From a virus: a DNA stretch of 64,000 nt. A model generated the notes under the pieces. That model did not search any database, had not been told where the DNA came from, and saw only the letters and a program-made list of their open reading frames with translations. Every line of letters begins with the position of its first letter. Positions within the stretch are counted from its first letter, which is position 1. Below are positions 26,497-47,082 of the stretch, in pieces. Where the stretch lies: positions 14,085 to 78,084 of IMG/VR virus record IMGVR_UViG_3300030104_007872; one strand, 5' to 3'. The position numbers and the translations under genes are program-made.

Positions 26497-26512
26497 AGTG
26501 TAATAAATTTAA

Positions 26513-26926: not shown

Positions 26927-26960
26927 CCCTGTTTTTATATAATCATGCTAAAAGCATGAA

Positions 26961-27818
26961 ATGAGGTTTTTATTCGTATCAGATTTTACATTAGAGCAAA
27001 GATCGGGTGGCGCTCAGGTTAGTAATGACCTGATCATAAAAAGAGGACGCGAGTTGGGCCATGAAATCATTGAGCATGACTACACTTCTTCTCCTGTGGA
27101 TTTTTTATCTTATTACGACTCAATTATTAGCTCTAATCTTGAGGTTATAAGTAGGTCGGCGCCTATCAAACTAGATTTCATAACAAAACATGGAAACCAT
27201 ATACGGCTGGAGCACGATTCTTGCTCCTATTTAAACGCAGAAGTTAGGCGGTCACTGTTCGAATCATCCAACCTTAACTTTTTTCTTTCGGATTTCCACA
27301 TTGGGTTTTTTCGTGAAAGGTATGGAAATTACTTTGAGAATGTTGAAATCGTTTATGACCCTATTGACACTGGACTCTTTTGCGATGATAGCTCAGAAAA
27401 GATTTATGATGTGGTTTATTGTGGGTATTTGCACGAACTTAAGGGTTTAAAAAACTTACTACATTTCGCCTCCTCAAATCCAAATAGGGAAATATCAGTT
27501 TTTGGCTGGTGTGATTTTAAACCCGAATCAGCTTTTTCTGCTTTGGATAATATCTCCTTCCACGGAGAAAGGACTCACGAAGAAATTGCAAAGATATTTA
27601 AGCAAAGTTTAGCTGTATATCACAGCCCAATAGTTAATGAACCCTTTTGCCGCATGGTTGGTGAGGCTCTTTTGTGCGGCGTTCGCGAGGTTATAGGCTC
27701 AACAGAGAAGATAGGCTCTTATTTAGAGTTTCAAAAACATGGTATCGAAAAGTTTAGCCAAGACTGTTCAAATGCTCCTGATGTATTTTGGCAAAAAGTA
27801 CAGGAATCACTCAAATGA
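26961..27818 (+). CDS. Glycosyltransferase (GT-B, family 4-like)
   Basis: GGAQ N-terminal motif, YCGYLHELKG and EPFCRMVGEALLCG. Confidence 0.8.
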   Translation: MRFLFVSDFTLEQRSGGAQVSNDLIIKRGRELGHEIIEHDYTSSPVDFLSYYDSIISSNLEVISRSAPIKLDFITKHGNHIRLEHDSCSYLNAEVRRSLFESSNLNFFLSDFHIGFFRERYGNYFENVEIVYDPIDTGLFCDDSSEKIYDVVYCGYLHELKGLKNLLHFASSNPNREISVFGWCDFKPESAFSALDNISFHGERTHEEIAKIFKQSLAVYHSPIVNEPFCRMVGEALLCGVREVIGSTEKIGSYLEFQKHGIEKFSQDCSNAPDVFWQKVQESLK

Positions 27819-28723
27819 AAATAATTTTAGCGATTAATAAAACACTCAGCCGCAATCAAACCGAGTGTTTAGATGGCGGTTATTATAATTTCTATATTCC
27901 TCTTTTGGAGTTGGGCCACGAAGTTTTATTATACGATACTGTCAGAGGTGCAGAAAAAAGCTTCAATGAGCTTGTGGAAACCTTTAACCCCGATTTAATT
28001 TTTTGTTGTATTACTGGCAATAAAGAGGTCACCCCGTACGAACCATTTGAAGAAATAAAGCATATAACTAAAAACACAAAAATAAAAACATTCAATTGGT
28101 TTTGCGATGACACTTGGAGATTCGACGATTTTAGCAGTAAAGTTTGCAAACACTTCACTCATTGTTCGACGCCCGAAGAAAAATATTTAGATAGATATAA
28201 GGACATAGGATATGAAAATATTTTATTGGGGAATTGGCACTGCAACGCTGATTTGCGATTTCCTTATAATAAATCCGTCGATGTCGGCTTTTGTGGGGGT
28301 ATCACTCAGGCACGAGCGAGCGTTTTCAATTCTCTTATAAGCGGTGGGGTCAATTTAAAATGTTTTTATGGACTGTCTTATGAGGATATTTTTAAAGCTT
28401 ACGCCTCCTCTAGGATAGGTATTAACCTTACTGTTAATGATAATGACCCCTCGAAAAAGCAGCAGATGAAGCTGCGTATCTTTGAGATTGTCGCATCGGG
28501 AACTTTCCTGCTAACAGAAAATGTGGAAGGTTTGGAAAAGTATTTTGAAATTGGAAAGGAAATAGAAACCTTTACAACACCCCAAGAGGCGCAGGAAAAA
28601 ATAACACACTATCTTCAAAATGAAGAGGCTAGGGAAAAAATAGCTGCCGCTGGCCACAGACGCTTTTTGACAGATCACCGTTCAAGTGTTAGATTAACTG
28701 AGGTTTTGGAACAAATAAAATAA
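27815..28723 (+). CDS. Glycosyltransferase (CgeB/Glyco_trans_1_2-like)
   Basis: NWFCDD, RIGIN, RIFEIVASG and IAAAG...H motifs; ATGA overlap at 27815. Confidence 0.8.
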   Translation: MKIILAINKTLSRNQTECLDGGYYNFYIPLLELGHEVLLYDTVRGAEKSFNELVETFNPDLIFCCITGNKEVTPYEPFEEIKHITKNTKIKTFNWFCDDTWRFDDFSSKVCKHFTHCSTPEEKYLDRYKDIGYENILLGNWHCNADLRFPYNKSVDVGFCGGITQARASVFNSLISGGVNLKCFYGLSYEDIFKAYASSRIGINLTVNDNDPSKKQQMKLRIFEIVASGTFLLTENVEGLEKYFEIGKEIETFTTPQEAQEKITHYLQNEEAREKIAAAGHRRFLTDHRSSVRLTEVLEQIK

Positions 28724-29653
28724 ATGACAATATACATACAGAAACATGGAAGCCACGCTGGCTACTGGATATACAGTGGATATGCACACGCATGGATTTA
28801 TCATGGCTTTCAGGTGAAATTTTTTGAATCCTTTGAGGAGGTTGACACAAAACAGCCCTATGCCCTGATGATAACCGATTCTTGGCTTAATAACGAGTAT
28901 GAGGATTACATTAATGCCTTTGATTATCTTAAAAAGAGCGAATTTTGTATACTTTATGCATCTCCAAAAGGTTTTCCTGACCCCTGGGGCACCCATCCTA
29001 ATTTTGTATGCCCGCTCAACGACGAATTTATCAAAAAACTTGACGATATTGATAACTTAGTTAAGTGGAATTTTTCAGAAACTGACAATGAATATTTTTC
29101 TCATTGGAAAGACATAAAAACCATCCCCCTTGCATTCGATAATATAAATTACGAATGTGCAAAAGATGACGAAAAGGAATATTTATATGATGTCTGTTTC
29201 ATCGGCAGCGTAGCTAACAATGGCTTTAATGAAAAAATAGAAATCATAAAAGCTTGCTTAAATGCATTTGCCCACAGCGATTTAAATTGTGGGTTTTCTA
29301 TCGGCCAAAATATTTCTCACGAAAAAGAAAACGAGGTTTTAATTAGGTCTAAAGTATGTTTAAATATTCACGATAAATATCAAAGGGTCTTAGGGTTGGA
29401 TGCCAACGAAAGAACATTCAAGTCTTTAGGCGCCAATGGGTTATTGGTTAGCGATTCTACAACTCAAGTAAAAAACCTCTTTCCAGATGTATTTTGTTCT
29501 AATGAACCGCAGGAGCTTGTGGATGAGTGCAGCAGGCTCGTTTCTAAGGATGTGAAGGAATTAAATAAAATTAAAAAACAAAACAGGCAAACCATAGAGG
29601 ATCAACATTCCTATATCAGAAGAGTCGAACAATTATTGACCTATGCGAATTAA
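28724..29653 (+). CDS. Glycosyltransferase (CgeB-like)
   Basis: DVCFIG, KVCLNIH, NERTFK and HSYIRR. Confidence 0.75.
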   Translation: MTIYIQKHGSHAGYWIYSGYAHAWIYHGFQVKFFESFEEVDTKQPYALMITDSWLNNEYEDYINAFDYLKKSEFCILYASPKGFPDPWGTHPNFVCPLNDEFIKKLDDIDNLVKWNFSETDNEYFSHWKDIKTIPLAFDNINYECAKDDEKEYLYDVCFIGSVANNGFNEKIEIIKACLNAFAHSDLNCGFSIGQNISHEKENEVLIRSKVCLNIHDKYQRVLGLDANERTFKSLGANGLLVSDSTTQVKNLFPDVFCSNEPQELVDECSRLVSKDVKELNKIKKQNRQTIEDQHSYIRRVEQLLTYAN

Positions 29654-30368
29654 TATAATCATTCCAAATTACAACAAGGAACCTTTTGTCATAAAGTGCC
29701 TTGAGTCTTGCTTAAATCAGACTTATGAAAACTTAGGCGTCATTTTCATCGATAACGATAGTACTGATAATAGCTTGCAACTTGTTAAGGATTTTTCAAA
29801 AACGCACGACAGAGATTTTATCATAGATGTGGCAGAAAATATCTATCCCCGCTGTTGGGAGGAATGTATAGAAAAGGCTGAACAATATTTAGATGGGGAA
29901 TATTACACAATTGTTGGTTCAGATGATTACCTTGATGAGAATTATATCGCTAATTTTTGCGAGTGGATAAAAGAGCAAGAGGAGGAGGTCTTAGCCGTTC
30001 ATTCAGACTTACTTTGGGTTGAGGATGGTAAAGATTTCAATTATACAACCTACAAGTATAGCGACATAGACGATTTAAAATTGAAATTAGTTCAAGGGTG
30101 CGCCATAAACAGCCCAACAGTTTTTTATAGTAGGAAAATCACCGAGGATAAGAGCCTTAAGGCTAAACCAGAGGTATATAGCGGCGCAGCAGATTATGAT
30201 TTTTATTGCCAATTGGTTGATAAGGGTATATTTATTCACAATATAGGCGACTGGATAGGCTATCATTACAACGTCAACAAATCTCAGGCAACGTGGGAGA
30301 TGCATCTTGATCCTATTAATTATACAAATGTAATTATTAAAAAGTATAAGGACAAGTGGAAAATTTGA
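29643..30368 (+). CDS. Glycosyltransferase family 2
   Basis: IIIPNYN, IDNDSTDNS, GSDD and DYDF. Confidence 0.9.
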   Translation: MRINIIIPNYNKEPFVIKCLESCLNQTYENLGVIFIDNDSTDNSLQLVKDFSKTHDRDFIIDVAENIYPRCWEECIEKAEQYLDGEYYTIVGSDDYLDENYIANFCEWIKEQEEEVLAVHSDLLWVEDGKDFNYTTYKYSDIDDLKLKLVQGCAINSPTVFYSRKITEDKSLKAKPEVYSGAADYDFYCQLVDKGIFIHNIGDWIGYHYNVNKSQATWEMHLDPINYTNVIIKKYKDKWKI

Positions 30369-31666
30369 CGCAAACATTAGATAGTGTAAGGGATTTTTTA
30401 CGGAGCAAATCCCCCAAAAAATGGATAGCTGGCGAAGATTATGTACAATATGCGGGGCCAGTTTTTGACGAAGAAGAGATATTATCCGCTGTAGAAACAC
30501 TGTTGGACGGCTGGCTCGTTTTGGGCAAGCGAGGTTTATCTTTCGAGAGGCAGTTTTGCAAGCTGTTGGGTAAGGATTATGGCGTATTGACTAATAGCGG
30601 AAGTAGTTCGAACCTAATAATGATGGAGGCCCTAAAATCCAAAAGATTATACGGACTCCCAAATGACACAAAAGTTATTACTCCTATAGCGGGATTTCCC
30701 ACGACGCTAAATCCAATATTTCAGGTAGGGTTTAAGCCACTGTTTGTAGATATTGACATCGATACTCTTAATTTAAATTTAGAGCAAGTAGAAGAAAAGG
30801 CTAAAAAAGGCGCAAAAGTAATAACATTTGCACATGTTTTGGGCAATCCACCAAATATGGATCAGCTAATGCAGATAGTGAATGAGTATGATTTGATTTT
30901 ACTTGAGGATTGTTGTGATGCGCTAGGTTCCAGCTACAGAGGGAACGATTTGGGTAGTTTTGGAGAATTTTCCACATGTTCTTTTTATCCAGCCCACCAT
31001 ATTACAATGGGAGAGGGTGGATTTGTCGCTTCAAAAACCTACAACCAGCAAATTGTCGCTAGAAGCTTAAGGGAATGGGGGCGCGGATGTTATTGCGTAG
31101 GGGAAAAGGCGGGTTTGTCTAAAACGGGGTGCTGCGGCAAAAGGTTTAGCAATTGGCTTCCAAGTTTACCAGATGAAGTTTTTGATCACAAATATGTCTA
31201 TGACGAGATTGGCTATAATTTAAAACCTATTGAAATTCAAGCGGCTATCGGTTTGCAGCAACTGAAAAAATTACCTTCAATTATCACACGCAGAAAAGAA
31301 AACCATAAAAAACTTTATGATATTTTTGCGAAACATGAAGAGTATTTTATTTTGCCAGAGGCAACCGATGGGAGTGACCCTAGTTGGTTTGCTTTCGCCG
31401 TAACTCTTCGCGATGGCTGTAAATTCAAGAGAAATGAAATAGTGGACTTTTTTGAGTCGCATAAAATACAAACGCGCCCTTATTTTGCTGGAAATATCAT
31501 GTTGCAACCCGCTTATCGCGGGATTGTCAACGCCGAGGATGTTGTTAAAAAGTATCCCAATGCTCGCAAAGTAACCACCGACACCATGTTTCTAGGAACC
31601 AGCCCAGTAATTACTGATGAACAAATTAGATATATTGAAGAAGTTTTATATAATTTCATTGGATGA
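30356..31666 (+). CDS. rfbH: NDP-4-keto-6-deoxyglucose 3-dehydrase (E1/RfbH/DdhC; PMP and [2Fe-2S])
   Basis: EDCCDA, SFYPAHHITMGEGG (His at the PLP-Lys position), WGRGCYC...CCGKRF and DHKYVY. Confidence 0.9.
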   Translation: MENLTQTLDSVRDFLRSKSPKKWIAGEDYVQYAGPVFDEEEILSAVETLLDGWLVLGKRGLSFERQFCKLLGKDYGVLTNSGSSSNLIMMEALKSKRLYGLPNDTKVITPIAGFPTTLNPIFQVGFKPLFVDIDIDTLNLNLEQVEEKAKKGAKVITFAHVLGNPPNMDQLMQIVNEYDLILLEDCCDALGSSYRGNDLGSFGEFSTCSFYPAHHITMGEGGFVASKTYNQQIVARSLREWGRGCYCVGEKAGLSKTGCCGKRFSNWLPSLPDEVFDHKYVYDEIGYNLKPIEIQAAIGLQQLKKLPSIITRRKENHKKLYDIFAKHEEYFILPEATDGSDPSWFAFAVTLRDGCKFKRNEIVDFFESHKIQTRPYFAGNIMLQPAYRGIVNAEDVVKKYPNARKVTTDTMFLGTSPVITDEQIRYIEEVLYNFIG

Positions 31667-32610
31667 AGATAGTTTATGTCACAGGGTGCTTGGGTTTTAT
31701 TGGATCTCACATTACGCGACACTGCCTGAATAAGGGGTGGTATGTTAAGGGTGTTGATAAGCTTACTTATGCTGCCAACAGGGAGTTTCTAAACGAATTT
31801 CAAAAATTCGAAAATTTTTCATTCCTACAAGAGGATATCAATGATCTAAAGTTTTTATATGAATGTGACTATGTTATTAATACCGCAGCGGAAACTCATG
31901 TGGGAAACAGTATCATTAGTAGCGCTGATTTCATAAAATCAAACATTGATGGGGTCCATAATTTGCTAGAATTGATTAAGAATTATAGAATAGAAAACCT
32001 CAAAAAACCAACACTGTTACATCTTAGCACTGACGAAGTTTATGGAGATATTGCCAATGGAGATCACGGAGAGGAAGATCTTTTAAGGCCAAGTAACCCA
32101 TATTCAGCGACTAAAGCTGCTGCCGACATGCTAATTTTAGCTTGGGCTCGCACTCACTCGATACCTTACCTTATTGTTAGACCCACGAACAACTACGGAA
32201 TTGGTCAGTATGTAGAAAAATTAATTCCCAAGGCTTGTAAGTATTTAAAAATCAAGAAAAAAATACCCCTTCATAATGGGGGTGAACCCGTAAGGAATTG
32301 GTTACACGCCGATGATACCGCGAGTGCGATCACCACACTGATAGACAGTGGTTGTAAAAACGAAATATATAATATTTCTGGGCCTTTTGAGCAAAGTAAT
32401 TATGAGACCTGCAAAAAAATCATTAAACTCTTCGACCCAAGTTTGAAAGTGGACGAGTGTTTAGATTTTTCCTATGATAGGGCAGGTCAAGATGTTCGAT
32501 ACGCTCTTAATGATTCCAAGCTACAGGGTATTGGCTGGTCCGCGTCAAAAAACTTTGATGAGGAATTACCAGCAATAGTTGACCACTATAAGCATAAATT
32601 TATCTGGTAA
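31663..32610 (+). CDS. rfbB: dTDP-glucose 4,6-dehydratase
   Basis: GCLGFIG, DKLTYA, AAETHV, STDEVYG and YSATK. Confidence 0.88.
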   Translation: MKIVYVTGCLGFIGSHITRHCLNKGWYVKGVDKLTYAANREFLNEFQKFENFSFLQEDINDLKFLYECDYVINTAAETHVGNSIISSADFIKSNIDGVHNLLELIKNYRIENLKKPTLLHLSTDEVYGDIANGDHGEEDLLRPSNPYSATKAAADMLILAWARTHSIPYLIVRPTNNYGIGQYVEKLIPKACKYLKIKKKIPLHNGGEPVRNWLHADDTASAITTLIDSGCKNEIYNISGPFEQSNYETCKKIIKLFDPSLKVDECLDFSYDRAGQDVRYALNDSKLQGIGWSASKNFDEELPAIVDHYKHKFIW

Positions 32611-33620
32611 TGAGAGCTTGTGATTACATAGCGACAGCATTGAGCAAAAGAGGCGTAAAGTATGTTTACGGCGTAATGGGCGGCGGTGCTGCGGGTTTAA
32701 ATGATGGCTTCATTAAAAACAGCAATATACAATACATCGGCTTTCACCATGAGCAGGGGGCAAGTCATGCAGCTATAGGGGAAAGCAAGGTTACAAAAAA
32801 AATTGCAGTCGTTAATCCGACCACGGGTTGTGGTGGCACTAATTGCGTAACTTCGGTCTTGGATGCGTGGCAAGACAGTATACCAGTGGTATTCATATCG
32901 GGCAATGTGCGCTTAAGTCATACCAGTTCACACATCAATAGAATAAACAATACATCAATTAGAAAATTTGGAATACAGGAACACGATATCGTTTCTACAG
33001 TAAAATCAATTACAAAGTATTCAAAATTTGTAGAGACAGCGGAGGATGTTCCATACGAACTTGAACGTGCTATTCATGAGGCGACAAGCGGAAGAATGGG
33101 GCCAGTGTGGCTAGACATTCCCAGTGATGTTCAGCATGGTGACATACCCGAAACCCACAAAACCTTTACTCCTGGAATTGATAACGTTTTAAATAAAGGT
33201 TTAGACTATGTAGAGCAAAGCATTAACAATTATGACAGGCCGTTAGTCCTTGCGGGGTATGGTGTGGTTTTAAGCGATTCTAAAAACGACTTTAAAAAGT
33301 TTATCGAACAAAACAACGTACCTTTTGTTACTAGTTATTTAGGTATTGATATTCTTGGTTATGAACACCCACTAAACTTGGGAACTATAGGAATCAAGGG
33401 CAGTAGGGCGGGTAATTTTGCGATTCAAAATTGTGATTGCCTAATAGTGATGGGTTGCTCTCTCAACAGTTCGCATTTAGGCTATGATGAAAATTTGTTT
33501 TCTCCGAAGTCCCACAAAATAATCATTGACATAGATTCAGATGAACACGCAAAAAACAAAGTTAAGATAGACAAATTAATAAAAGCAGATTTGCGCGAAT
33601 TTTTTAATCATGAAAGCTGA
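32610..33620 (+). CDS. Thiamine-diphosphate enzyme, N-terminal and central domains (acetolactate synthase/YerE-like)
   Basis: HHEQGA, TTGCGGTN, GRMGPVWLDIPSDVQ and RAGNFAIQNCD. Confidence 0.85.
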   Translation: MRACDYIATALSKRGVKYVYGVMGGGAAGLNDGFIKNSNIQYIGFHHEQGASHAAIGESKVTKKIAVVNPTTGCGGTNCVTSVLDAWQDSIPVVFISGNVRLSHTSSHINRINNTSIRKFGIQEHDIVSTVKSITKYSKFVETAEDVPYELERAIHEATSGRMGPVWLDIPSDVQHGDIPETHKTFTPGIDNVLNKGLDYVEQSINNYDRPLVLAGYGVVLSDSKNDFKKFIEQNNVPFVTSYLGIDILGYEHPLNLGTIGIKGSRAGNFAIQNCDCLIVMGCSLNSSHLGYDENLFSPKSHKIIIDIDSDEHAKNKVKIDKLIKADLREFFNHES

Positions 33621-34359
33621 GTGGATTGATAGATGCAAGAGGTGGAAAAGTAAGTGGCCAATCTTCAAAGATTCGTTTATTGACGATTCGAACGGCGTTA
33701 ATCTTTATAATTTTATTGAGATTTTAAATTCCGTAATAACAAAAAACGAAACAATAGTCAGTGATGCTGGATCGGCCATATATGTGCCCTGCCAGAATTT
33801 AAAATTAAAAGAGGGTCAAGACTTCATCATATCTGGGGCTCAAGCCGATATGGGTTTTGCATTGCCAGCTTCCATTGGTGTATACTTGGCGGATTCTACG
33901 AAAAATGTATTAGTTGTAACGGGCGACGGAAGCTTCAATACCAATATTCAGGAGTTAGCTGTGATTAGAAGCCTAAACGTACCAATAAAAATCTTTGTCT
34001 GGAACAATAATGGTTATTTGAGCATTAGAAATACACAAAGCAAGTTTTATGAGGGTCGCGTCTATGGGACAGACAAGGATACTGGGCTCTGGTTTCCAGA
34101 ATTAGAATCAGTGGCAAAGACTTATGAATTTGACTTCGTAAAATTATCAACGAACGTGGAAGTGAGAGATAACTTACTTAAAATTATTAATAATAAAAAC
34201 CCTATGATATGTGAGGTTATTTGCGACCCCAATCAAGATATTACACCAACCTTAATGCTAAAAGAGGACGAGGCAACGGGTGAAAAAATTCAGTGCGGTT
34301 TGGATGACATGTTTCCATTTTTGTCACAAGCAGAACTAGATAACGAAAAATACAATTAA
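33610..34359 (+). CDS. Thiamine-diphosphate enzyme, C-terminal ThDP-binding domain
   Basis: MGFALPASIG and GDGSF...NNNGY motifs. Confidence 0.85.
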   Translation: MKAEWIDRCKRWKSKWPIFKDSFIDDSNGVNLYNFIEILNSVITKNETIVSDAGSAIYVPCQNLKLKEGQDFIISGAQADMGFALPASIGVYLADSTKNVLVVTGDGSFNTNIQELAVIRSLNVPIKIFVWNNNGYLSIRNTQSKFYEGRVYGTDKDTGLWFPELESVAKTYEFDFVKLSTNVEVRDNLLKIINNKNPMICEVICDPNQDITPTLMLKEDEATGEKIQCGLDDMFPFLSQAELDNEKYN

Positions 34360-34361
34360 TT

Positions 34362-35291: not shown

Positions 35292-35296
35292 ATTTA

Positions 35297-38009: not shown

Positions 38010-38013
38010 AACG

Positions 38014-38451
38014 ATGAGAGTAACAAATATCGACACCCTTTCCGCGTATTTTGATAGATTAATAACAGAAAACATAAAGTTATTTTTTTTCAAAAAGGAC
38101 CAAGAACAGGAAAAGGTTGATCATCAAAAAGAAGTAATTTCTGATATTAAAGGTAAAATCTCCACTCTAATTAAAGAGTGCTTAGATACTGGTAAATACG
38201 AATATCTTTCAGAAAAACGAACATTTAACGAAAACTCTATAGTAGAAAATTTAGAGGAATTAGTTTTTAATGATATTAATATAGGCGAATCGGATAGAGA
38301 AAGATTAAAACAAGTACAATCTGAGACTCCAAGCTTAGATAAGTTCATAGTTAATGAAAAGAGACTTCGTAAGGCTAATGAGGGAAGGGCGCGTAATAAA
38401 AATGAAATTGACAACCAATTTCAAAAAATAATCGAAGAGCCTCAGACATGA
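38014..38451 (+). CDS. Helical hypothetical protein (DUF4254-like)
   Basis: DRLITENIK and ANEGRARNKNEID patterns. Confidence 0.45.
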   Translation: MRVTNIDTLSAYFDRLITENIKLFFFKKDQEQEKVDHQKEVISDIKGKISTLIKECLDTGKYEYLSEKRTFNENSIVENLEELVFNDINIGESDRERLKQVQSETPSLDKFIVNEKRLRKANEGRARNKNEIDNQFQKIIEEPQT

Positions 38452-39437: not shown

Positions 39438-40474
39438 TGAAATTCGGTATTTGGCGACATGAAAATTCCATAGGAAATTCGGTGGAACACACGATGGGTC
39501 TAGCGGTTTATTTAACAGTCAATAAGATTGATCCCGCCAATGTGGAAGTTTATGTCGAGAACGATTGGCAGAAAGATTTCGTTCTGTGCATACAGGGTAT
39601 TCAGGAAAAAAATGTAAAGTTTTTTGAGCGCCCCGTTGAAATGGACACTAAAGATCCGTATTTTGATGACATTCACATGCCAAACGTTTACGGACCAACC
39701 GCTTTCCCGCTTAGTTACGAGTGCGATTGGAATTATCTAGATAAACATAAAGAGCTTAACGTTTCACTTAAGTTTGACGATAGCGATTACGAAAATAAAT
39801 TTAATTTACCTAAAGATGCAGTTGTTCTCTTTTGTAGGGAACACGGAACGTGGTGGAAACGTGAGGATGGTAGTGAATTTGAGCCCGAGAGATTTGTGGA
39901 CCCCGAAACCTTCCATGATTTAGCTCACTATTACGCTAATAAAGGCTATAAAGTGATTAAGATTGGTGACGCCAAACAAAAAAGGTTGCGGGGAAATTAT
40001 ACACCTTTTGAATTCGGAGAGAGATACGAACACGAGAACCTGATCGATTTTACCAAATATCTTGACGAAGACGGCAACCCTAGATGGACTCTGAAAGATT
40101 ATCTGTTTATTCTACAAAATTGTAAGGTTTTTATCTCCTGTGATGCTGGAATTTGGCCAATGGCCGCAGCAATGAATAAAAATCTTGTTTTTTGCAATGT
40201 GATGTGCATACTTTACCCTATAACCCTCAAGCCACTTTCGGATGGAGCAAAGCTTTCGGATGATGGTCTGACCATAGAGTTTACGAAGCCCAATATGGTG
40301 ACGTGGATGCCACGGAAAACTACTAGGGTCTTACTGAAACATGCAACCATAGACACGGATAAGCTTAAAAGAGTTGAAGAGGATAGCGGAACGTATAAGA
40401 TTTTCTCCACTGATGTGATTTTTAGCGATAACACCTTCACGGAAATACTCACAGCAACAGAAACGTTAATTTAG
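39434..40474 (+). CDS. Putative glycosyltransferase (GT9/TIGR04372-like)
   Basis: SIGN N-terminus, GYKVIKIG and FISCDAGIWPMAAAM. Confidence 0.6.
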   Translation: MMKFGIWRHENSIGNSVEHTMGLAVYLTVNKIDPANVEVYVENDWQKDFVLCIQGIQEKNVKFFERPVEMDTKDPYFDDIHMPNVYGPTAFPLSYECDWNYLDKHKELNVSLKFDDSDYENKFNLPKDAVVLFCREHGTWWKREDGSEFEPERFVDPETFHDLAHYYANKGYKVIKIGDAKQKRLRGNYTPFEFGERYEHENLIDFTKYLDEDGNPRWTLKDYLFILQNCKVFISCDAGIWPMAAAMNKNLVFCNVMCILYPITLKPLSDGAKLSDDGLTIEFTKPNMVTWMPRKTTRVLLKHATIDTDKLKRVEEDSGTYKIFSTDVIFSDNTFTEILTATETLI

Positions 40475-40475
40475 C

Positions 40476-41153
40476 ATGAATATCGCTGCCTTTATACCTG
40501 CGCGAGGTGGTAGCAAAGCAATTCCGCGCAAAAATATTATAGAATTTGCAGGGCAACCACTATTAAGTTGGTCAATCGAACAGGCTCAAGCTTCCGAATA
40601 CATAAATAACGTTTACGTTTCTTCTGATGATGATGAAATTTTGCGGATTTCTGAAAATTATGGTGCAAAGTCAGTTAAGCGTCCCGATGATATTTCTGGC
40701 GACTTAGCTTCAAGTGAATCCGCTTTACTGCACTTTACAAGTCACCTTAAAAATGTTGATCTCGTAGTCTTCCTTCAGGCCACGTCGCCGCTACGCGAAC
40801 CCTGTGATCTGGACGGGGCAATAGAGCACTTTTTAATGCATAATTACGATTCCCTGTTTTCAGCAAATGAATTGGGAGACATGTGCATCTGGAGAAAAAA
40901 AAACAATAAGCTTAAAAGCTATAATTATAATTATAAAAATCGCCAGCGTCGGCAAGATCTTAATCAGGAACAACTGGTGGAAAATGGTTCGTTTTATTTA
41001 TTTACGCCAAAATGCTTGCGAAAATATAAAAATCGTTTAGGCGGAAAAATAGGATATTTTTTAATGGAAAATTGGAAAATTCACGAGGTTGACACGCCAG
41101 AGGATCTAGTGTTATGTGAGTTTATGTTTAAGCAGAAGGGATTGAATAAGTGA
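40476..41153 (+). CDS. neuA: CMP-nonulosonic acid synthetase
   Basis: IPARGGSKAIPRKN, LQATSPLR, ENGSFY and EVDTPED. Confidence 0.92.
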   Translation: MNIAAFIPARGGSKAIPRKNIIEFAGQPLLSWSIEQAQASEYINNVYVSSDDDEILRISENYGAKSVKRPDDISGDLASSESALLHFTSHLKNVDLVVFLQATSPLREPCDLDGAIEHFLMHNYDSLFSANELGDMCIWRKKNNKLKSYNYNYKNRQRRQDLNQEQLVENGSFYLFTPKCLRKYKNRLGGKIGYFLMENWKIHEVDTPEDLVLCEFMFKQKGLNK

Positions 41154-42124
41154 ATGAGTCAGTAGAGAGAGTGGTTTATATGAATGGGGAGTTTATTCCC
41201 GAGTCGCAGGCTAAGGTATCTATATATGATTCTGCCCTCATGTTTGGCGATATGGTTTTTGAAATGACCCGCTCGTTTAATAAGAAGCAATTCAAATTAC
41301 GGGAACATTTGGAAAGGTTATACGCATCGATGAAATATATTCACCTCGATTACCCAATGAGTATTGAGGAGATGGAAGATGCAGTTTACAAAACTATCGA
41401 AGTTAATGAGCCCGCTTTCGGAAAGGACGATGAGCACCGTATTATGATTGATGTCACACGGGGACTACTGGGAATATACGAGGGGGTTAACGGATTACGG
41501 TCTGGGCCAAATGTAATTATAGCGGATTTTCCGCTAAAGTGGACGGTGAGTTCTATGGGCCATTTATTTGATACGGGTATCAATGCGGTAATAACCTCAC
41601 AAAGAGCTATTCCTGCTTCTCTTTTAGAGCCCAAAATAAAAAATAGAAGTAGGATACATTACCTTATGGCTAACATAGAGGCGTCAAAGATGAAGGGTCA
41701 AGATAACTGGGCTCTTTTGCTTGATCCCGATGGATTCGTGGCCGAGGGCACGGGGGATAATTTCTTCATAGTTAAAAACGGACAGATAGTTACTCCTGAA
41801 CCCCGTAATATTTTGCGCGGCATAAGCAGAGATTATATATTTGAATTGTCGCAGCAGCTTAATATTAAGTGTATTGAAAAAAACATTGAGCCATATGATG
41901 TAATGATGGCTGACGAAGCTTTTATGACGGGCACACCATTTTGCCTCCTTCCTGTGACAAGCTTAAATTCTGTTAAAATTGGTGACGGAGCCATGGGATC
42001 ACTTACGCGCTTGCTATTGGATCGCTGGAGCGCCAATGTAGGCTTAGACATAGAAAGGCAGATTAAAGATTATTCTTGTCCATCCAATTCATCATCTCCG
42101 TCTCCATACATTTTTAAAAAATGA
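41150..42124 (+). CDS. Class IV PLP aminotransferase (IlvE/D-amino-acid aminotransferase-like)
   Basis: FGDMVFE, HLERL, KIKNRS, AEGTGDNFF, ILRGISR and ADEAFMTGT. Confidence 0.9.
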   Translation: MNESVERVVYMNGEFIPESQAKVSIYDSALMFGDMVFEMTRSFNKKQFKLREHLERLYASMKYIHLDYPMSIEEMEDAVYKTIEVNEPAFGKDDEHRIMIDVTRGLLGIYEGVNGLRSGPNVIIADFPLKWTVSSMGHLFDTGINAVITSQRAIPASLLEPKIKNRSRIHYLMANIEASKMKGQDNWALLLDPDGFVAEGTGDNFFIVKNGQIVTPEPRNILRGISRDYIFELSQQLNIKCIEKNIEPYDVMMADEAFMTGTPFCLLPVTSLNSVKIGDGAMGSLTRLLLDRWSANVGLDIERQIKDYSCPSNSSSPSPYIFKK

Positions 42125-42894
42125 AGTTGGGAATAATTCAAGGTAGATTGTCTGAACCAATCGAGGGCTTCCAAGAGTGTCCAGAAAATTGGGCTAGAGA
42201 GTTCGAGTTATTGGTAGGTTTTAAATTGAATCATATAGAATGGATTGTTACAGCGGAGAAATTTAATACCAACCCCCTTTTCGCTGAAAATTTACGGAAT
42301 TATCCAATTTCTTCTGTTTGCGCTGATTTTATGGTTAGCGAAAAGTTTTCGGATGGCGATTATTTAAAGCGTTTTTTGCGGCCCACTTGCGAAGCAGTTT
42401 TGCGTCATGGGATCAAACATTTGACCATCCCCCTCCTAGAGGAAAGTGATGTGAGCAACTCAAAAGCAAGAGAGATATTTGCGAGTAATTTTGCACCTTA
42501 TGTAGAAGAGTTTAGCGATATTACTTTTTTAATAGAAGCGGAACTTCATCAAGATAAACTAAAGGATCTTCTTGAGATCAGCCCAACCTTAGGTGTGACT
42601 TATGATACGGGCAATATTACTTCTTGTGGTTTCAGTCACGAAAACTATATTAAGGAACTTAAAGACAGAATCAAACAAGTTCACATAAAGGATAGGACTA
42701 TAAATCCAGTGGAAACCGTTCCACCCACACGGGGACGCACTGATTTTAATTTAATTTTTAAAAAGCTTAAAGAGATAAATTTTGACGGTCCATATACACT
42801 TCAAACGGCCCGCGAAAAAACGGGAAATGAACTTGAAACAATTCAAAAACACGCAACAATAATACGAAATTTATATTATGAAGAATTTTTTTAA
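42121..42894 (+). CDS. Sugar-phosphate isomerase/epimerase (xylose-isomerase-like TIM barrel)
   Basis: GIIQGRLS, YDTGN and VHIKDR. Confidence 0.8.
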   Translation: MKLGIIQGRLSEPIEGFQECPENWAREFELLVGFKLNHIEWIVTAEKFNTNPLFAENLRNYPISSVCADFMVSEKFSDGDYLKRFLRPTCEAVLRHGIKHLTIPLLEESDVSNSKAREIFASNFAPYVEEFSDITFLIEAELHQDKLKDLLEISPTLGVTYDTGNITSCGFSHENYIKELKDRIKQVHIKDRTINPVETVPPTRGRTDFNLIFKKLKEINFDGPYTLQTAREKTGNELETIQKHATIIRNLYYEEFF

Positions 42895-43693
42895 CCTAAA
42901 GGGCAAAACCGCCTTAATCACAGGCGGGGGTGGGCTTTTAGGGCCAAAACATGCTGAAGCGATTATTGAGCAGGGTGGCCGTGTTATTTTAGCTGATTGG
43001 CACCAAGATCGAGCCGCAAAAAAAGCCGAGCAACTCAACAGAGAACATGGAGAATCCGTTGCTGATTGGCATCACATGGACGTTACCGATAAATTGTCCA
43101 TCGAAAGGGTTGTCGATAAATATAATAAAATAGATATCCTAATAAATAATGCAGCTAAAGATCCAAAAGTTAAAAAAGATGCGGGGCTTACGGTTGAATC
43201 GAGGTTTGAAACCATGACTGAGAAATATTGGCAAGAGGGGGTAGATGCAGCCTTAAATGGAACGTTTTTGTGCTCACAGGTTGTTGCAAACTTAATGTTG
43301 AAGTGTGGCGGTGGAGTGATTCTTAATATTGCTTCTGATTTAGGTGTTATAGCTCCCGATCAGCGCATTTACGAAAAAGAAGGGTTAGATGAGGATCAAC
43401 AAAATGTTAAACCAATTACTTATTCTGCGGCAAAATGGGCCATTATAGGTATGACTAAATATTTGGCGGTTTATTTCGCTAAGAAAAATATACGAGTCAA
43501 TTCACTTAGCCCCACAGCAGTCTACAATAATCATCCAGAAGATTTTGTGGAAAAGTTGACGAATTTAATTCCAATGGGTAGGATGTCAGATATCAATGAA
43601 TACAAAGGGGCAATTGCTTTTTTGTGCTCTGACGCAAGCTCTTATATGACAGGAGAAAATTTGGTAATCGATGGTGGTAAGAGCGTATGGTAA
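42878..43693 (+). CDS. Short-chain dehydrogenase (PtmA-like SDR)
   Basis: ITGGGGLLG, INNAA, YSAAK and TGENLVIDGG. Confidence 0.88.
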   Translation: MKNFFNLKGKTALITGGGGLLGPKHAEAIIEQGGRVILADWHQDRAAKKAEQLNREHGESVADWHHMDVTDKLSIERVVDKYNKIDILINNAAKDPKVKKDAGLTVESRFETMTEKYWQEGVDAALNGTFLCSQVVANLMLKCGGGVILNIASDLGVIAPDQRIYEKEGLDEDQQNVKPITYSAAKWAIIGMTKYLAVYFAKKNIRVNSLSPTAVYNNHPEDFVEKLTNLIPMGRMSDINEYKGAIAFLCSDASSYMTGENLVIDGGKSVW

Positions 43694-43983
43694 TATATGT
43701 AGATATCGACGGGACGATTTGTGAGTCAGCGCCAACAGGTGATTATTCAGATGCGCTACCAGTCCAAAGCTCTATAAATAAAATAAACAAATTATATCAC
43801 GAAGGTAACACCATTATCTATTGGACTGCTCGTGGCACTGTAACATATATAGATTGGCTAGAGATGACCAAAGATCAGTTAAATCAGTGGGGCTGTTTAT
43901 TTCACGATGTTAGAGCAGGAAAGCCTCAGTATGATTTATGGATTGATGATAAATCTATAAAAATAGAAGAACTTGATGAGTAA
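43687..43983 (+). CDS. Minimal HAD-family phosphatase
   Basis: DIDGT, WTARG and GKP...IDDK. Confidence 0.85.
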   Translation: MVIYVDIDGTICESAPTGDYSDALPVQSSINKINKLYHEGNTIIYWTARGTVTYIDWLEMTKDQLNQWGCLFHDVRAGKPQYDLWIDDKSIKIEELDE

Positions 43984-44902
43984 AATATTAGTAACAGGTG
44001 GCTCGGGAATGGTGGGCAAACATTTGCAAAAAATCTTACCGAATGCGGAATATTTTTCAAGTCGTTCTTGTAATCTTAAAAGGGAATCGTTGACTTCTGC
44101 GGTCTTTTACAAAATGCGGCCCGACGTGGTGATTCATCTTGCTGCGAAGGTGGGCGGGATTTTAGACAACATAAGACATCCCGTAGAATTCTTTGAAGAT
44201 AACATAGCAATAAACAATAATGTTATAAAGTCCGCTTATGAAAGTGGCTGTAAAAAAATAATTTCAGTTTTAAGTACCTGCATTTATCCAGATGAGGTTC
44301 CAGAGTCAGATTATCCGATGGTCGAGGCATCTCTGCATTCTGGGCCTCCTACACCAACCAATTTTGCATATGGTTATGCAAAAAGATGTCTGGCGGTTCA
44401 GTTAGCAGCCTATAATCAACAGCACAATACTCAATACAGCACTTTAATTCCCTGCAATTTATATTCAGAATACGATCACTTTGAGGGTGAAAGGGCTCAT
44501 TTTTTATCTAGCCTAATAAATAAAATTGATACAGCTAAACGCCAAAACGCTAAAAAGATTAACCTCTTGGGCACTGGAGCGCCACTGCGGCAGTTTATGT
44601 ATGCGGGGGATTTAGCTGAGGCAATTGTATTAACCTTAGATAAAGATGATGTCTTCAATTATAACATTTGCACACCTGAAAACAAGAGCATTAAAGAGAT
44701 CTGTGATATTGCGCTAGAGGCATGTGATGCTACCCATCTAAGTGTCGAGTGGGACGAAACAAAACCCGACGGCCAATATAGGAAGGACGCCTCGTCAAAG
44801 AGATTCTTAAAAGATTTTCCAGATTTCAAATTTACCAAACTTGTAGAAGGAATTAAAAAAACTTATAATATAATCAGTAATGAAAGAGTGGAGACTAAAT
44901 GA
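43976..44902 (+). CDS. fcl: GDP-fucose/GDP-colitose synthase (Fcl/ColC)
   Basis: GGSGMVG, LAAKVGGI, STCIYP, YGYAKR and KPDGQ. Confidence 0.9.
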   Translation: MSKILVTGGSGMVGKHLQKILPNAEYFSSRSCNLKRESLTSAVFYKMRPDVVIHLAAKVGGILDNIRHPVEFFEDNIAINNNVIKSAYESGCKKIISVLSTCIYPDEVPESDYPMVEASLHSGPPTPTNFAYGYAKRCLAVQLAAYNQQHNTQYSTLIPCNLYSEYDHFEGERAHFLSSLINKIDTAKRQNAKKINLLGTGAPLRQFMYAGDLAEAIVLTLDKDDVFNYNICTPENKSIKEICDIALEACDATHLSVEWDETKPDGQYRKDASSKRFLKDFPDFKFTKLVEGIKKTYNIISNERVETK

Positions 44903-46049
44903 ACCAAACGTTACCTTTTGGGATAGGTTAAAGATTTGCTCATTTTTTCTGAATCCTAAAAATTTCTGGACGATGAACGGTAAAGTCTCTCTCTTTGAGG
45001 AGTCTATGGCCGATTATGTAGGCTGCAAATACGCGGTTTATGTTTCCAGCGGCTCGACCGCTAATACCTTATTGGCTATGCATCTTCGTGATAATATTGC
45101 GAAGAATAATATCGAGAAAGATACCATAGTTTTTCCATCTACCACTTGGACCACTTCGATTTCTCCTTTTTTAAGGGAGGGGTTCAAGCCGAAATTTATA
45201 GACGTAAACCTCAAAGACTTCTCTATTGATTTAGATTCTCTTGAGAATTACCTAAAAGACAATCATGAGCAAGTTTGCTGCGTTTTTCTGACTTCTTTGA
45301 TTGGATTTGTGCCTGACATGAAAAGGCTTGAGGCTATCTCTAAACGCTTCAACGTTAAGGTAATGTTGGATAATTGTGAAAATACTTTTGGCACCTACGG
45401 CGGTAAAAATGTTTCGTCTTTTTTCACCTCTACCACCAGCACATATTTTGGACACCAGATTCAGAGTGTCGAGGGCGGCTTTGTATTCACTAATTGTCAA
45501 GATGAATACGAATATTTTTTAATGGCTCGCAATCACGGCTTAACTCGCAGCCTTAAAAATTCTTCACACGTTCGCAATAAAAATGTTGACCCGCAGTTTG
45601 ATTTTTTTCTACTGGGTAATAATTTTCGCAATACAGACATCAATGCCTTCATAGGTCTTTTGGACTTTAAAAGGATAGATAAAATAAAGAATAAGAGGGA
45701 AAAACTGTATGAGGTTTTTTTAAATGAATTAAAATGCAACATGGGCCTTTCCTTGCCGAGTGAGTTGCGCGGTCATTCCCCGTTTTGCTTGCCAGTTTTG
45801 TGCGATACTGTAAAACAGAAATCCCTTTTGTTGAAATATTGTAAAGAAAACAATATTGAGACTAGGCCAATTATCTCAGGAAATTTATTAAAACAAAGCT
45901 GTTATTCCGCTTTTGCTGATCCGCTTTCGTTTCCCAATAGCGAGCGCTTGCACACGCATGGGTTTTATGTCGGGCTACACGCGCACGTTAAAAAGTCTCA
46001 GGTTGAAAAATTAACCTCACACATTAATATCACTTTAAATGAAAAATAA
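44880..46049 (+). CDS. colD: GDP-4-keto-6-deoxymannose 3-dehydratase (ColD-like)
   Basis: DegT fold with SSGSTAN; YFGHQIQSVEGG places His at the PLP-Lys position; flanked by gmd and fcl. Confidence 0.75.
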   Translation: MKEWRLNEPNVTFWDRLKICSFFLNPKNFWTMNGKVSLFEESMADYVGCKYAVYVSSGSTANTLLAMHLRDNIAKNNIEKDTIVFPSTTWTTSISPFLREGFKPKFIDVNLKDFSIDLDSLENYLKDNHEQVCCVFLTSLIGFVPDMKRLEAISKRFNVKVMLDNCENTFGTYGGKNVSSFFTSTTSTYFGHQIQSVEGGFVFTNCQDEYEYFLMARNHGLTRSLKNSSHVRNKNVDPQFDFFLLGNNFRNTDINAFIGLLDFKRIDKIKNKREKLYEVFLNELKCNMGLSLPSELRGHSPFCLPVLCDTVKQKSLLLKYCKENNIETRPIISGNLLKQSCYSAFADPLSFPNSERLHTHGFYVGLHAHVKKSQVEKLTSHINITLNEK

Positions 46050-47082
46050 AAAAATTATAATTACAGGAGTTACTGGACAGGATGGAAGCCTTATGGCCGA
46101 TTATCTGTTGAAAAACACGGAGCATACCGTGGTTGGTGGCGTTCGTAGACTGAGCGTCAAAAATCATCAAAACATCCAGCATTTGCTAAAAAATCCTCGG
46201 TTTTATCTGATTGATCTAGACGTAACAGACAGCCAGAATATCGCTAGGGTTATTGAATCCGAAAAGCCTGATTATTTTATTAATTTTGCTGCAAATTCCT
46301 TCGTTGGTGTGAGTTGGGAAATGCCCTTGAACAATATGGAAACCAATTGCATGGCTGTCCTGCATCAGTTGGAGGCAATTCGTTCACATGCGCCAAAATG
46401 CCGTTATTACAACGCAGGAAGCTCAGAGGAGTTTGGCGATGTTGTGGAGACACCGCAGACCGAAGACCACCCCTTGCGCCCCAGAAGCCCATATGGAGCG
46501 TCAAAATGCGCCGCTAGGCATTTAGTTAAGGTCTATAGAGATTCTTACGATATTTATGCTGTTCAGGGTTGGCTCTTTAACCACGAGGGTGTGCGCCGTG
46601 GTGAAGAATTCGTAACGCGAAAAATAACCAAGAATGTCGCAAGAATAGAGGGTGAGTTTCGCAAGGGCGACGGAATTACACCGCTGCAATTAGGAAATGT
46701 GGACGCTAAACGAGATTGGAGTGACGCGGAAGATTTTGTAGACGGTGTTTGGAAAATGTTAAATCAAGATAAGCCAAAAGATTACATCTTATCATCCAAT
46801 GAAACCCACACAATCAGAGAGTTTGTTGAAGAGGCTTTTAATTACGCAGGCTTTCATCGCAGCATGTGCTCTTGGCGCGGCGAGCATGAGGATGAAAAAT
46901 ATTTTCATGGAGATGATTGTTTGGTAGAAATTAATCCTATTTTTTATCGCCCAGCGGAAGTAGATATCTTGTTGGGTGATTCAACCAGAGCACGTCAAGA
47001 GCTAGGTTGGTCACCAAAAACAGATTTCCTAAATCTTGTCAAGAAGATGGTTGACACGGATATCAAGGAGCGCAATACTTAG
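46039..47082 (+). CDS. gmd: GDP-mannose 4,6-dehydratase
   Basis: ITGVTGQDGS, PRSPYGASK, LFNHEG, FVTRKI and RPAEVD. Confidence 0.95.
   Translation: MKNKKIIITGVTGQDGSLMADYLLKNTEHTVVGGVRRLSVKNHQNIQHLLKNPRFYLIDLDVTDSQNIARVIESEKPDYFINFAANSFVGVSWEMPLNNMETNCMAVLHQLEAIRSHAPKCRYYNAGSSEEFGDVVETPQTEDHPLRPRSPYGASKCAARHLVKVYRDSYDIYAVQGWLFNHEGVRRGEEFVTRKITKNVARIEGEFRKGDGITPLQLGNVDAKRDWSDAEDFVDGVWKMLNQDKPKDYILSSNETHTIREFVEEAFNYAGFHRSMCSWRGEHEDEKYFHGDDCLVEINPIFYRPAEVDILLGDSTRARQELGWSPKTDFLNLVKKMVDTDIKERNT
47051..47079 (+). promoter_or_regulatory. Putative sigma70-type promoter TTGACA-17-AATACT; leaderless start at GTG 47085
   Basis: Sequence match and position at the start of the replication module. Confidence 0.5.

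Follow-up and report, generated by a model that had tools for sequence, protein, structure and literature searches.

A hypervariable glycan-synthesis island with three predicted rare-sugar routes in a lineage of marine tailed phages

In the IMG/VR virus record IMGVR_UViG_3300030104_007872, a dense island of sugar-metabolism and glycosyltransferase genes was found between the ribonucleotide reductase gene nrdA and the replication genes. This record (G000) is a 78,084-bp linear viral contig lacking terminal repeats, i.e., a genome fragment; the stretch analysed, hereafter the window, comprises its bases 14085-78084 (64,000 nucleotides), and positions below are those of the window unless stated otherwise. 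The island (26961-47082) is one allele of an O-antigen-like glycan locus that varies across a whole phage lineage and whose conserved anchors are a GDP (guanosine diphosphate)-mannose 4,6-dehydratase (Gmd) and a GT-B glycosyltransferase encoded outside the island. The sugar island noticed in the original prediction, which had been made from the sequence alone, is thus confirmed, and the interpretation given to it there is partly supported. The most economical reading is that the acceptor is cytoplasmic and probably a protein, and we put the probability that the acceptor is the virion at roughly 0.45.

Exactly 23 open reading frames (ORFs), all on the + strand, occupy the island. Their coordinates overlap at 17 of the 22 junctions and the remaining gaps are at most 5 nt, indicating that the island is a single tightly packed block. 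On its upstream side lie nrdB/nrdA (23879-26496) and then a conserved gene for a 137-aa protein (26513-26926, +), which shows 34-51% identity to proteins encoded just after nrdA in relatives, gave no match in family searches and forms the left edge of the variable slot. On its downstream side, a 115-aa gene is followed by genes for a RecA-like recombinase, DnaB, a primase and a PD-(D/E)XK nuclease, and also for a PHP-domain protein, an exonuclease, a DnaE-type polymerase and a ClpB-like ATPase. ORF coordinates and flanking families therefore agree with the predicted run of 23 contiguous, same-strand, mostly overlapping genes from nrdA to the replisome, and the roughly six island transferases and three nucleotide-sugar pathways that had been proposed were all found, the latter through family and motif matches. 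Calling the system "self-contained" was an overstatement, as hexose-1-phosphate nucleotidyltransferases and the partner reductase of the E1 enzyme described below are missing. The G+C content within the island (0.37-0.42) is the same as that of the flanks, promoter and terminator signals in the island were not above shuffled expectation, and a megablast search of the island against 50,697 GenBank phage records gave no match.

Sugar genes occupy the same slot in every relative. Among IMG/VR relatives, of which at least 150 were found with the RecA-like protein and at least 595 with the capsid protein, 71 of 80 loci have Gmd (64-84% identical) immediately before the 115-aa and RecA-like genes. 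Where both ends are visible, Gmd is separated from nrdA or the 137-aa gene by 4.0, 4.3, 5.5, 6.5, 7.3 or 7.9 kb; three large contigs have about 11, 11.5 and 16 kb, and this island has 19 kb. Clustered at 50% identity, the slot content of 357 ORFs from 52 loci gave 223 clusters, of which 143 have a single member. The tally of Pfam families in 150 representatives of these clusters was led by epimerases/dehydratases of nucleoside diphosphate (NDP)-sugars, methyltransferases (including C-methyltransferases) and DegT aminotransferases, with GT2, radical SAM/SPASM, NeuB, carbamoyltransferase, RmlC, GT11 and HAD as further leading families. Of the 22 variable island genes, only 5 find a homologue with 50% identity or more in the slot of any relative, and near-identical phages (RecA-like proteins 91% identical) hold unrelated islands. 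With the island of G002, a collinear relative of 104,265 bp that CheckV estimates to be 94% complete, only distant NeuB and cytidylyltransferase genes are in common. The locus thus combines a fixed slot with content differing among close relatives, as expected of a hypervariable marine-phage glycan island. Eleven loci (L021, L022, L025, L036, L052, L055, L056, L063, L073, L078 and L093) end inside Gmd, at the border of the variable slot, which is consistent with assemblies breaking on population microdiversity at a hypervariable edge.

The phages carrying this slot form a very large, abundant and uncultured lineage of marine tailed phages, in which the genome measures about 105 kb, the tape measure has 2340 aa and the polymerase is of the DnaE type; a Maf-like transferase identical to that of the island is also encoded on a contig of 105,324 bp. 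Parts of the island occur outside the lineage as well. The gene order thiamine enzyme, PanB, short-chain dehydrogenase/reductase (SDR), RfbH and dehydratase, followed by Maf, NeuB and cytidylyltransferase genes, was also found in the IMG/VR loci L009-L012. A megablast search of the L011 cassette against the same GenBank phage records gave no match. Gp23 is present in the T4-like contigs G005 and G007, and neither matches the capsid protein of this phage, which is encoded at 2736-3875; a putative tube protein is encoded at 5564-6781. The cassette shared with T4-like contigs, together with an SDR-NeuB-HAD module in a Kyanoviridae record (MH319754), suggests that these modules travel between phage lineages. 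As a separate observation, the CheckV completeness estimates for the 78-kb G000 (29%) and the collinear 104-kb G002 (94%) do not match.

Membrane functions were sought with a Kyte-Doolittle scan for hydrophobic segments. Among the 88 ORFs of G000, no protein has two or more such segments, save two weak ones in the 2340-aa tape measure; in G002, which runs about 40 kb past the equivalent of the window end, no protein has more than about three, and none of the 357 slot ORFs from the 52 related loci has two. Furthermore, in a six-frame profile search for which 9-13 control genomes were positive, Wzx (PF01943), Wzy (PF04932) and Bac_transf (PF02397) were absent from G000-G003. The initiating transferase, flippase, polymerase and multi-pass membrane protein that mark an O-antigen or capsule locus dependent on Wzx/Wzy or an ATP-binding cassette (ABC) transporter were thus not found, and hydrophobicity and profile searches of G000 plus relatives agree with the predicted lack of Wzx, Wzy, an initiating transferase and any evident membrane protein.

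Six transferases are encoded in the island. A GT4-like enzyme (26961-27818, +), borderline in its match to PF00534 (26.5 bits against a cut-off of 26.4), has a 58% homologue within the island of locus L088. It is followed by two CgeB-like (Glyco_trans_1_2) glycosyltransferases (27788-28723 and 28724-29653, both +; PF13524, 98.0 and 51.8 bits) and by a GT2 glycosyltransferase (29643-30368, +; PF00535, 67.2 bits), whose 30-39% homologues adjoin Maf cassettes of other phages. Farther downstream, a GT9-like GT-B glycosyltransferase of 349 aa (39425-40474, +) reaches 36 bits with TIGR04372, below the cut-off of 45, and its structure matches GT9 clusters of the structure atlas, many of them viral, with template-modelling (TM) scores of 0.58-0.65.

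The sixth, a Maf-like (MptE/DUF115) transferase of 362 aa with a sialyltransferase fold (36076-37164, +), matches PF01973 at 56.4 bits (cut-off 34.6). Its AlphaFold2 model has a mean predicted local distance difference test score (pLDDT) of 79, the low-confidence part being an insertion of about 70 aa, and a hydrophobic stretch at residues 278-296 is a buried core element of the model. Foldseek alone gave weak Maf/Cst-II matches, which were resolved by VIA-align: Z 15.8 (root-mean-square deviation 3.7, 201 residues) to the Magnetospirillum Maf 5MU5, to its residues 260-510 only, followed by Z 14.4 to archaeal MptE, Z 11.6 to Campylobacter Cst-I and Z 8-9 to GT29/mammalian sialyltransferases. 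The model thus indicates a minimal enzyme, i.e., the catalytic domain with a Maf/sialyltransferase-like fold, and not a full Maf. The 85 homologues of this family are mostly about 290 aa long (280-320) and come from marine metagenomes or viral contigs; neither a PDB sequence search nor a tblastn search of the 50,697 GenBank phage records produced a match. Mafs that have been characterised transfer nonulosonates activated by cytidine monophosphate (CMP) to flagellin. In the island, the NeuB gene overlaps the stop of the Maf-like gene and a cytidylyltransferase gene lies four genes downstream, and this linkage of Maf to CMP-nonulosonate genes was found in 13 of 16 viral loci.

Outside the island, the further glycosyltransferase predicted at 21589-22668 (-) is borne out by a match to phrog_2170 (E 1.6e-13) and by an AlphaFold2 model (pLDDT 91.6) of a GT-B enzyme. 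It adjoins the Hsp20 and single-stranded DNA-binding protein (SSB) genes, just past the tail genes, and is conserved in the lineage, being 65% identical to its counterpart in G002; 2051 homologues were found, the best 120 of which are all at least 60% identical. It has no Pfam match and no match in a PDB sequence search. Its best PDB fold match is 3OY2, a putative glycosyltransferase of chlorovirus NY2A (E 2.4e-16, TMq 0.71, 15% identity), and its best viral models belong to uncultured Caudovirales, lipothrixviruses and giant viruses. These fold matches are compatible with a role at the virus particle and are no proof of it.

Three adjacent genes at the right end of the island correspond to the enzyme set of a GDP-colitose-type 3,6-dideoxyhexose. 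Gmd (46039-47082, +), the conserved right anchor of the slot, matches PF16363 at 354.9 bits and TIGR01472 at 337 bits, the latter below its cut-off of 415. The preceding gene (44880-46049, +) encodes a ColD-like 3-dehydratase of the DegT family (389 aa), dependent on pyridoxamine phosphate (PMP), in which His occupies the position of the lysine that binds pyridoxal phosphate; its best PDB match is ColD (2GMS/3GR9, 148 bits). The third gene (43973-44902, +) encodes an Fcl/ColC-like reductase-epimerase (GDPFucSynFcl, 193 bits, below cut-off). Acting in the order Gmd, ColD-like enzyme and Fcl/ColC-like reductase, these would yield a GDP-3,6-dideoxyhexose of the colitose type. As in the GDP-L-colitose pathway, Gmd is accompanied by a reductase of the Fcl family and by a PMP enzyme in which His takes the place of Lys; different from it, the similarity to ColD is only moderate. 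Gmd and the Fcl-like enzyme score below equivalog cut-offs, and sequence does not reveal the stereochemistry of the predicted product.

The left half of the island holds a second, independent 3-deoxygenation system in the gene order RfbH, dehydratase, thiamine enzyme, PanB and SDR. The first is an E1/RfbH-type NDP-4-keto-6-deoxyhexose 3-dehydrase dependent on PMP and an Fe-S cluster (30356-31666, +), which passes NF011936 (456.3 bits, cut-off 423) and aligns with E1 3BCX (340 bits) over the AHHITMGEGG motif, where His replaces Lys, and a Cys-rich stretch. It is followed by an RmlB-like NDP-hexose 4,6-dehydratase (31663-32610, +; PF01370/PF16363; TIGR01181, 291 bits, below the 365 cut-off) and by a thiamine diphosphate (ThDP)-dependent enzyme of the acetolactate-synthase/YerE type (32610-34359, +; PF02776, PF00205 and PF02775), encoded in two frames. 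PanB, the 3-methyl-2-oxobutanoate hydroxymethyltransferase that makes ketopantoate (34362-35291, +), passes both equivalog cut-offs (NF001452, 301.3 bits against 272; TIGR00222, 263.7 bits against 207.55) and is syntenic with the ThDP enzyme in L009-L012. Finally, a short SDR/epimerase-family reductase (35297-36079, +; PF01370, 61.5 bits), with 30-45% homologues in the same cassettes of other phages, takes the position of YerF/ErwF.

The published scheme for acyl-branched sugars needs a 4-keto-3,6-dideoxy sugar, a supplier of a gamma-hydroxylated alpha-keto acid, which is an aldolase or amino-acid transamination, a ThDP carboligase such as YerE, ErwE or MyGE, and an NAD(P)H reductase (PMC9306805). 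The island has all four components, with PanB as the supplier, ketopantoate being a gamma-hydroxy alpha-keto acid. We propose that the 4,6-dehydratase and the E1/RfbH enzyme would give a 4-keto-3,6-dideoxy sugar, that the IlvE-like aminotransferase described below, which could provide the PanB substrate from valine, would produce ketopantoate together with PanB, and that the ThDP enzyme would attach ketopantoate to C-4 and the short SDR reduce the branch. An acyl-branched 3,6-dideoxyhexose of the yersiniose/erwiniose kind, with a ketopantoate-derived branch, is our tentative prediction for the product. The cassette shares with YerE/YerF and ErwI/ErwE/ErwF a 4,6-dehydratase, an E1 enzyme, a ThDP carboligase, a reductase and a dedicated keto-acid supplier (PMC9306805), and is unlike them in that PanB replaces a pyruvate aldolase in forming the donor, the dehydratase is RmlB-like and not of the CDP type, an E3 is lacking and the ThDP gene is split. 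Among the island proteins, no Fer2 or FNR family match was found for the E1 partner, the E3/DdhD ferredoxin-NAD(P) reductase, and PF00175 was absent from G000-G003 and G007, with 11 control genomes positive; a host reductase would therefore be needed. Family searches also found no hexose-1-phosphate nucleotidyltransferase among the island proteins. If correct, the cassette predicts a new route to acyl-branched deoxysugars, in which an enzyme of primary metabolism, PanB, supplies the donor of a thiamine-dependent carboligase. That PanB is an auxiliary gene related to coenzyme A is less likely, because in an unrelated phage lineage it is again flanked by the ThDP enzyme and the reductase. No relevant paper on PanB in O-antigen clusters turned up in literature searches.

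The two halves of the ThDP enzyme, one with the N and M domains (32610-33620, 336 aa) and one with the C domain (33610-34359, 249 aa), are both complete and coupled through their start and stop, the ATG of the second overlapping the stop of the first (ATG..TGA). A run of six T's lies at the split site (33600-33620) in the interdomain linker. Were the run one T shorter, the frame would continue into the second ORF, and one of the two residues past the shared Phe matches the homologue in the T4-like phage locus L011, which is a single ORF of 637 aa. No indel was reported at this site in the Logan contigs of two spanning runs. The split may be functional or a recent frameshift.

In a third route, a short NeuB would act together with a HAD phosphatase, a TIM barrel, an SDR, an epimerase and a cytidylyltransferase to form a sialic-like acid activated by CMP. 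The NeuB-family nonulosonate synthase (37161-38009, +; PF03102, 203.8 bits) is without the C-terminal part of the model, covering positions 1-277 of 329 of TIGR03569 at 227.7 bits, below the cut-off of 399.65; in a tblastn search, only 3 of the 50,697 GenBank phage records matched it. A GalE-like NDP-sugar epimerase (38448-39437, +; PF01370, 176.9 bits; TIGR01179, 140 bits, below cut-off) and a CMP-sugar cytidylyltransferase of the nonulosonate/Kdo type (40476-41153, +; PF02348, 84.6 bits; PseF TIGR03584, 129.9 bits, below the 205.7 cut-off) are encoded downstream. Next come a class IV (IlvE-like) aminotransferase (41150-42124, +; PF01063, 170.4 bits; branched-chain aminotransferase models, 196-223 bits, below their cut-offs), a xylose-isomerase-like TIM barrel (42121-42894, +; PF01261, 49.2 bits), an SDR (42878-43693, +; PF13561, 149.7 bits) and a 98-aa HAD phosphatase with a weak match to the capsule phosphatase model TIGR01689 (43687-43983, +; 29.9 bits). 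The best NCBIfam model of this SDR is NF006619/PRK09186, which we take to be the PtmA flagellin-modification dehydrogenase. The TIM barrel and SDR adjoin NeuB in L014/L016, and the SDR and HAD also flank NeuB in the Kyanoviridae record. Of the canonical pseudaminic (Pse), legionaminic (Leg) and neuraminic (Neu) acid sets, only the short NeuB and the PseF-like cytidylyltransferase were found, both below equivalog cut-offs, and no N-acetyltransferase, NeuC or PseG family is among the 23 island proteins; judged by these families, the route is non-canonical. By analogy with the Kdn/Neu5Ac-9-phosphate routes, the HAD beside NeuB in several phages suggests a phosphorylated intermediate. Feeding of NeuB by RfbH and the dehydratase was considered and rejected on chemical grounds, since a 3-deoxyhexose would give a nonulosonate without the ring-forming C-6 hydroxyl. 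Literature searches found nothing relevant on phage nonulosonate synthesis. Between NeuB and the epimerase lies a 145-aa protein of a virus-only orphan family (38014-38451, +), which has no Pfam or NCBIfam match and whose nearest atlas clusters are 91-100% viral and without a family.

Gene content, solubility, hypervariability, anchors and contiguity come straight from the sequences; what follows on sugar structures, reaction order and especially the acceptor is deduced from them. During infection, soluble enzymes would convert host GDP-mannose, NDP-glucose and central metabolites into the three rare activated sugars, and the six island transferases and the conserved GT-B would build an oligosaccharide on a cytoplasmic acceptor, with no lipid carrier and no export; the glycan would differ between strains. 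A cytoplasmic protein acceptor is favoured by the lack of membrane functions throughout the lineage, by Maf-like and CgeB-like families that act on proteins, by the portability of the cassettes and by the chlorovirus match of the conserved GT-B. For instance, CgeB acts on the crust protein CgeA (PMC13577073), and phage-encoded transferases are described as glycosylating capsid and tail-tube proteins in a mycobacteriophage (Freeman et al. 2023, as cited in PMC12619734). The predicted cytoplasmic target thus gains support from the soluble gene set and the protein-acting families, while its supposed identity, most plausibly the virion, gains none from evidence on virion acceptors.

Several points weigh against this reading. 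No datum identifies the acceptor, the virion included, and a scan of all G000 and G002 proteins for Ser/Thr-rich tracts gave nothing striking. The island lies among nucleotide and replication genes of early type, not among late structural genes. Transferases that act on undecaprenyl-linked acceptors are also soluble or peripheral, so that missing transmembrane helices in the glycosyltransferases are not decisive, and the host could supply an initiating transferase and a flippase. Moreover, the Maf-like protein, judged by its model, lacks both terminal domains that flank the catalytic domain in true Mafs, the ThDP gene is broken into two frames in this window, the E1 partner reductase and hexose-1-phosphate nucleotidyltransferases are absent, and roughly a quarter of this phage's genome lies outside the contig. 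In a part of the G002 genome missing from G000, two adjacent giant genes were found (G002 70661-80379, -), encoding proteins of 1637 and 1601 aa; these may be fibres and hence candidate glycan carriers.

Alternatively, the phage sugars and peripheral transferases may alter a lipid-linked O-antigen, capsule or S-layer glycan of the host, to be exported by the host's own initiating transferase, flippase and ligase, so that the altered surface blocks superinfection or spares the loss of progeny on infected cells and debris. Host O-chain change is the published reading of the 24-gene lipopolysaccharide (LPS)-like cluster of the Prochlorococcus phage P-SSM2 (PMC1079782) and of the sugar genes in pelagimyophage hypervariable regions (PMC7029224). 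Colitose-type, yersiniose-type and nonulosonic sugars are classic components of O-antigens and capsules (PMC9306805), GT2, GT4 and GT9 families commonly use lipid-linked acceptors, and the position of the island with early/middle-type genes fits as well. However, no initiating transferase, flippase, polymerase or multi-pass membrane protein was found in the contig, in G002 or in the 357 island genes of the 52 relatives, and the Maf-like and CgeB-like families point to protein acceptors. In addition, the same cassette occurs in unrelated phage lineages, and with unrelated islands in near-identical phages, one host export system would presumably have to accept many glycans. We therefore consider remodelling of the host envelope somewhat unlikely. 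If it were the case, phages would carry a very large reservoir of O-antigen-type sugar pathways.

An improbable alternative is that a host protein, such as flagellin, pilin or another secreted or surface protein, is glycosylated in the cytoplasm, for example to change motility or receptor availability. It draws on the best fold match of the Maf-like protein being a Maf (Z 15.8), on the nearby NeuB and cytidylyltransferase genes and on the action of Mafs on flagellin. Yet the Maf-like protein corresponds to the central catalytic domain only (5MU5 residues 260-510), and seven transferases and three rare sugars look like more than is needed to sabotage one host protein. The SDR-NeuB-HAD module is also present in a Kyanoviridae phage, and the cyanobacterial hosts of Kyanoviridae are not known to have flagella; this bears on the sialic-like route and not on the Maf-like transferase, as no Maf homologue was seen in the 40-kb stretch of that record examined. 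To an acceptor or explanation beyond those considered here we likewise assign only a small chance.

Modification of phage DNA, an alternative raised in the original prediction, is very improbable. Phage transferases are described as able to attach a variety of glycans to DNA (Pyle et al. 2024, as cited in PMC12619734), and the conserved GT-B adjoins SSB. However, ThyA-type thymidylate-synthase and hydroxymethylase families are absent from the four records G000-G003, with 10 control genomes positive, and we know of no CMP-nonulosonate or Maf-like chemistry on DNA. T4-type DNA glucosyltransferases were also not among the listed structural matches of the conserved GT-B, which is weak evidence.

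An assembly chimera or host-derived insert, as might be suspected in a metagenomic contig whose relatives often break at the island locus, is practically negligible: a Logan contig of 25,557 nt (run X1) spans all of 26450-46449 with 4 differences, two contigs of run X2, from another study, cover the same stretch at 6 and 0 differences, two further studies yield partial contigs that differ little, the G+C content equals that of the flanks and all relatives keep sugar genes in the slot. Runs X1-X5, in which the phage was assembled at a contig depth of about 11-14x, may include the source sample of the window, so that the Logan spans show contiguity and not full independence; 'joints' in runs X7 and X8 were disregarded, their sides being shorter than 30 letters, and no RNA data set is among the sequencing runs listed for the phage. 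The predicted phage origin of the island, not a chimeric host insert, is upheld by the spanning contig, the matching G+C content and the slot of the relatives.

Returning to glycosylation of a cytoplasmic acceptor, several known systems invite comparison. Publications on LPS-like clusters in marine phages go back to 2005, and our island resembles those of P-SSM2 and the pelagimyophages in being a large block of epimerase, synthase and transferase genes in marine phages, variable among relatives; those phages are lytic, and the function of such blocks was never tested. Different from T4-like phages, this phage has a 2340-aa tape measure, and no Gp23-type capsid protein or sheath family was found in it; different from the marine T4-like clusters, which lie in the tail-fibre region, the slot here lies between nrdA and Gmd and is anchored by the conserved Gmd and GT-B. 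New here are the phage lineage, the two-anchor architecture, the range of slot sizes, the two independent 3-deoxygenation systems and the predicted PanB-fed sugar.

Mycobacteriophages described as glycosylating their virions (Freeman et al. 2023, as cited in PMC12619734) likewise encode soluble transferases; as far as that citing account goes, they use few transferases and host sugars, whereas here there are 23 genes and three dedicated rare-sugar routes, and the virion is only a proposed acceptor. As in Bacillus subtilis, where CgeB glycosylates the protein shell of the spore crust inside the cell with no export machinery (PMC13577073), a CgeB family is present, but that system is bacterial and developmental, and the likeness is limited to the PF13524 domain. 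Chloroviruses and giant viruses also encode soluble sugar pathways and transferases, by which the capsid or fibrils of the particle are decorated; unlike this phage, they infect eukaryotes, and the likeness of the conserved GT-B is at fold level (15% identity), the function of 3OY2 itself being putative. The Maf-like protein shares with Magnetospirillum Maf (5MU5) the MptE/DUF115 domain, the sialyltransferase-like fold and the nearby NeuB and CMP-sugar synthetase genes, and differs in its length (362 aa against 632), in having the central domain only and in the absence of a flagellin from the phage.

If the acceptor is the virion, complex glycan coats that vary with the strain would be widespread among abundant marine phages and not peculiar to mycobacteriophages and giant viruses, with a bearing on adsorption, host range, particle stability and grazing. 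Diversifying selection by host lectins or receptors, by grazers or by adsorption to debris would then explain the hypervariability. The lineage lends itself to clean comparisons, as its anchors are conserved, its contigs number in the hundreds and its islands range from 4 to 19 kb.

A lead on the host comes from the contig end (61807-64000), where a DUF1549/DUF1553 (PSCyt2/PSD1) protein and a DUF1501 protein are encoded, a pair missing at this position in G002. Such pairs are typical of Planctomycetota and Verrucomicrobiota. The best cellular match, cut by a contig end, is a metagenome-assembled genome of Roseibacillus (55% identity), in whose locus no other gene is shared with the phage, and the other matches (30-40%) come mainly from genomes of the Planctomycetes-Verrucomicrobia-Chlamydiae (PVC) group. 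By these matches, the host is probably a bacterium of the Verrucomicrobiota or Planctomycetota, which we take as a lead only. Literature searches found nothing relevant on DUF1501 or DUF1549 in phages. The most specific picture would be a strain-specific 'viral O-antigen' on the virion, assembled in the cytoplasm from a swappable cassette with two 3,6-dideoxyhexoses (one new and ketopantoate-branched) and a sialic-like cap added by a minimal Maf-type enzyme, in a globally distributed marine lineage probably infecting glycan-foraging Verrucomicrobiota or Planctomycetota; taken with all its parts, it is rather unlikely.

Three further genes of the phage deserve mention. The ClpB-like double-AAA+ ATPase (808 aa, 56705-59131), an unusual phage cargo, is kept at 42-74% in 27 related loci. 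The gene adjoining the conserved glycosyltransferase and SSB encodes an Hsp20/alpha-crystallin small heat-shock protein (21238-21558, -). In the head region, a 251-aa protein (L017 13685-14440 in G000 coordinates, reaching window positions 1-356) shows weak calcium-binding motifs of the EF-hand/dockerin type, with E values of 3e-5 to 2e-4, under the Pfam cut-offs.

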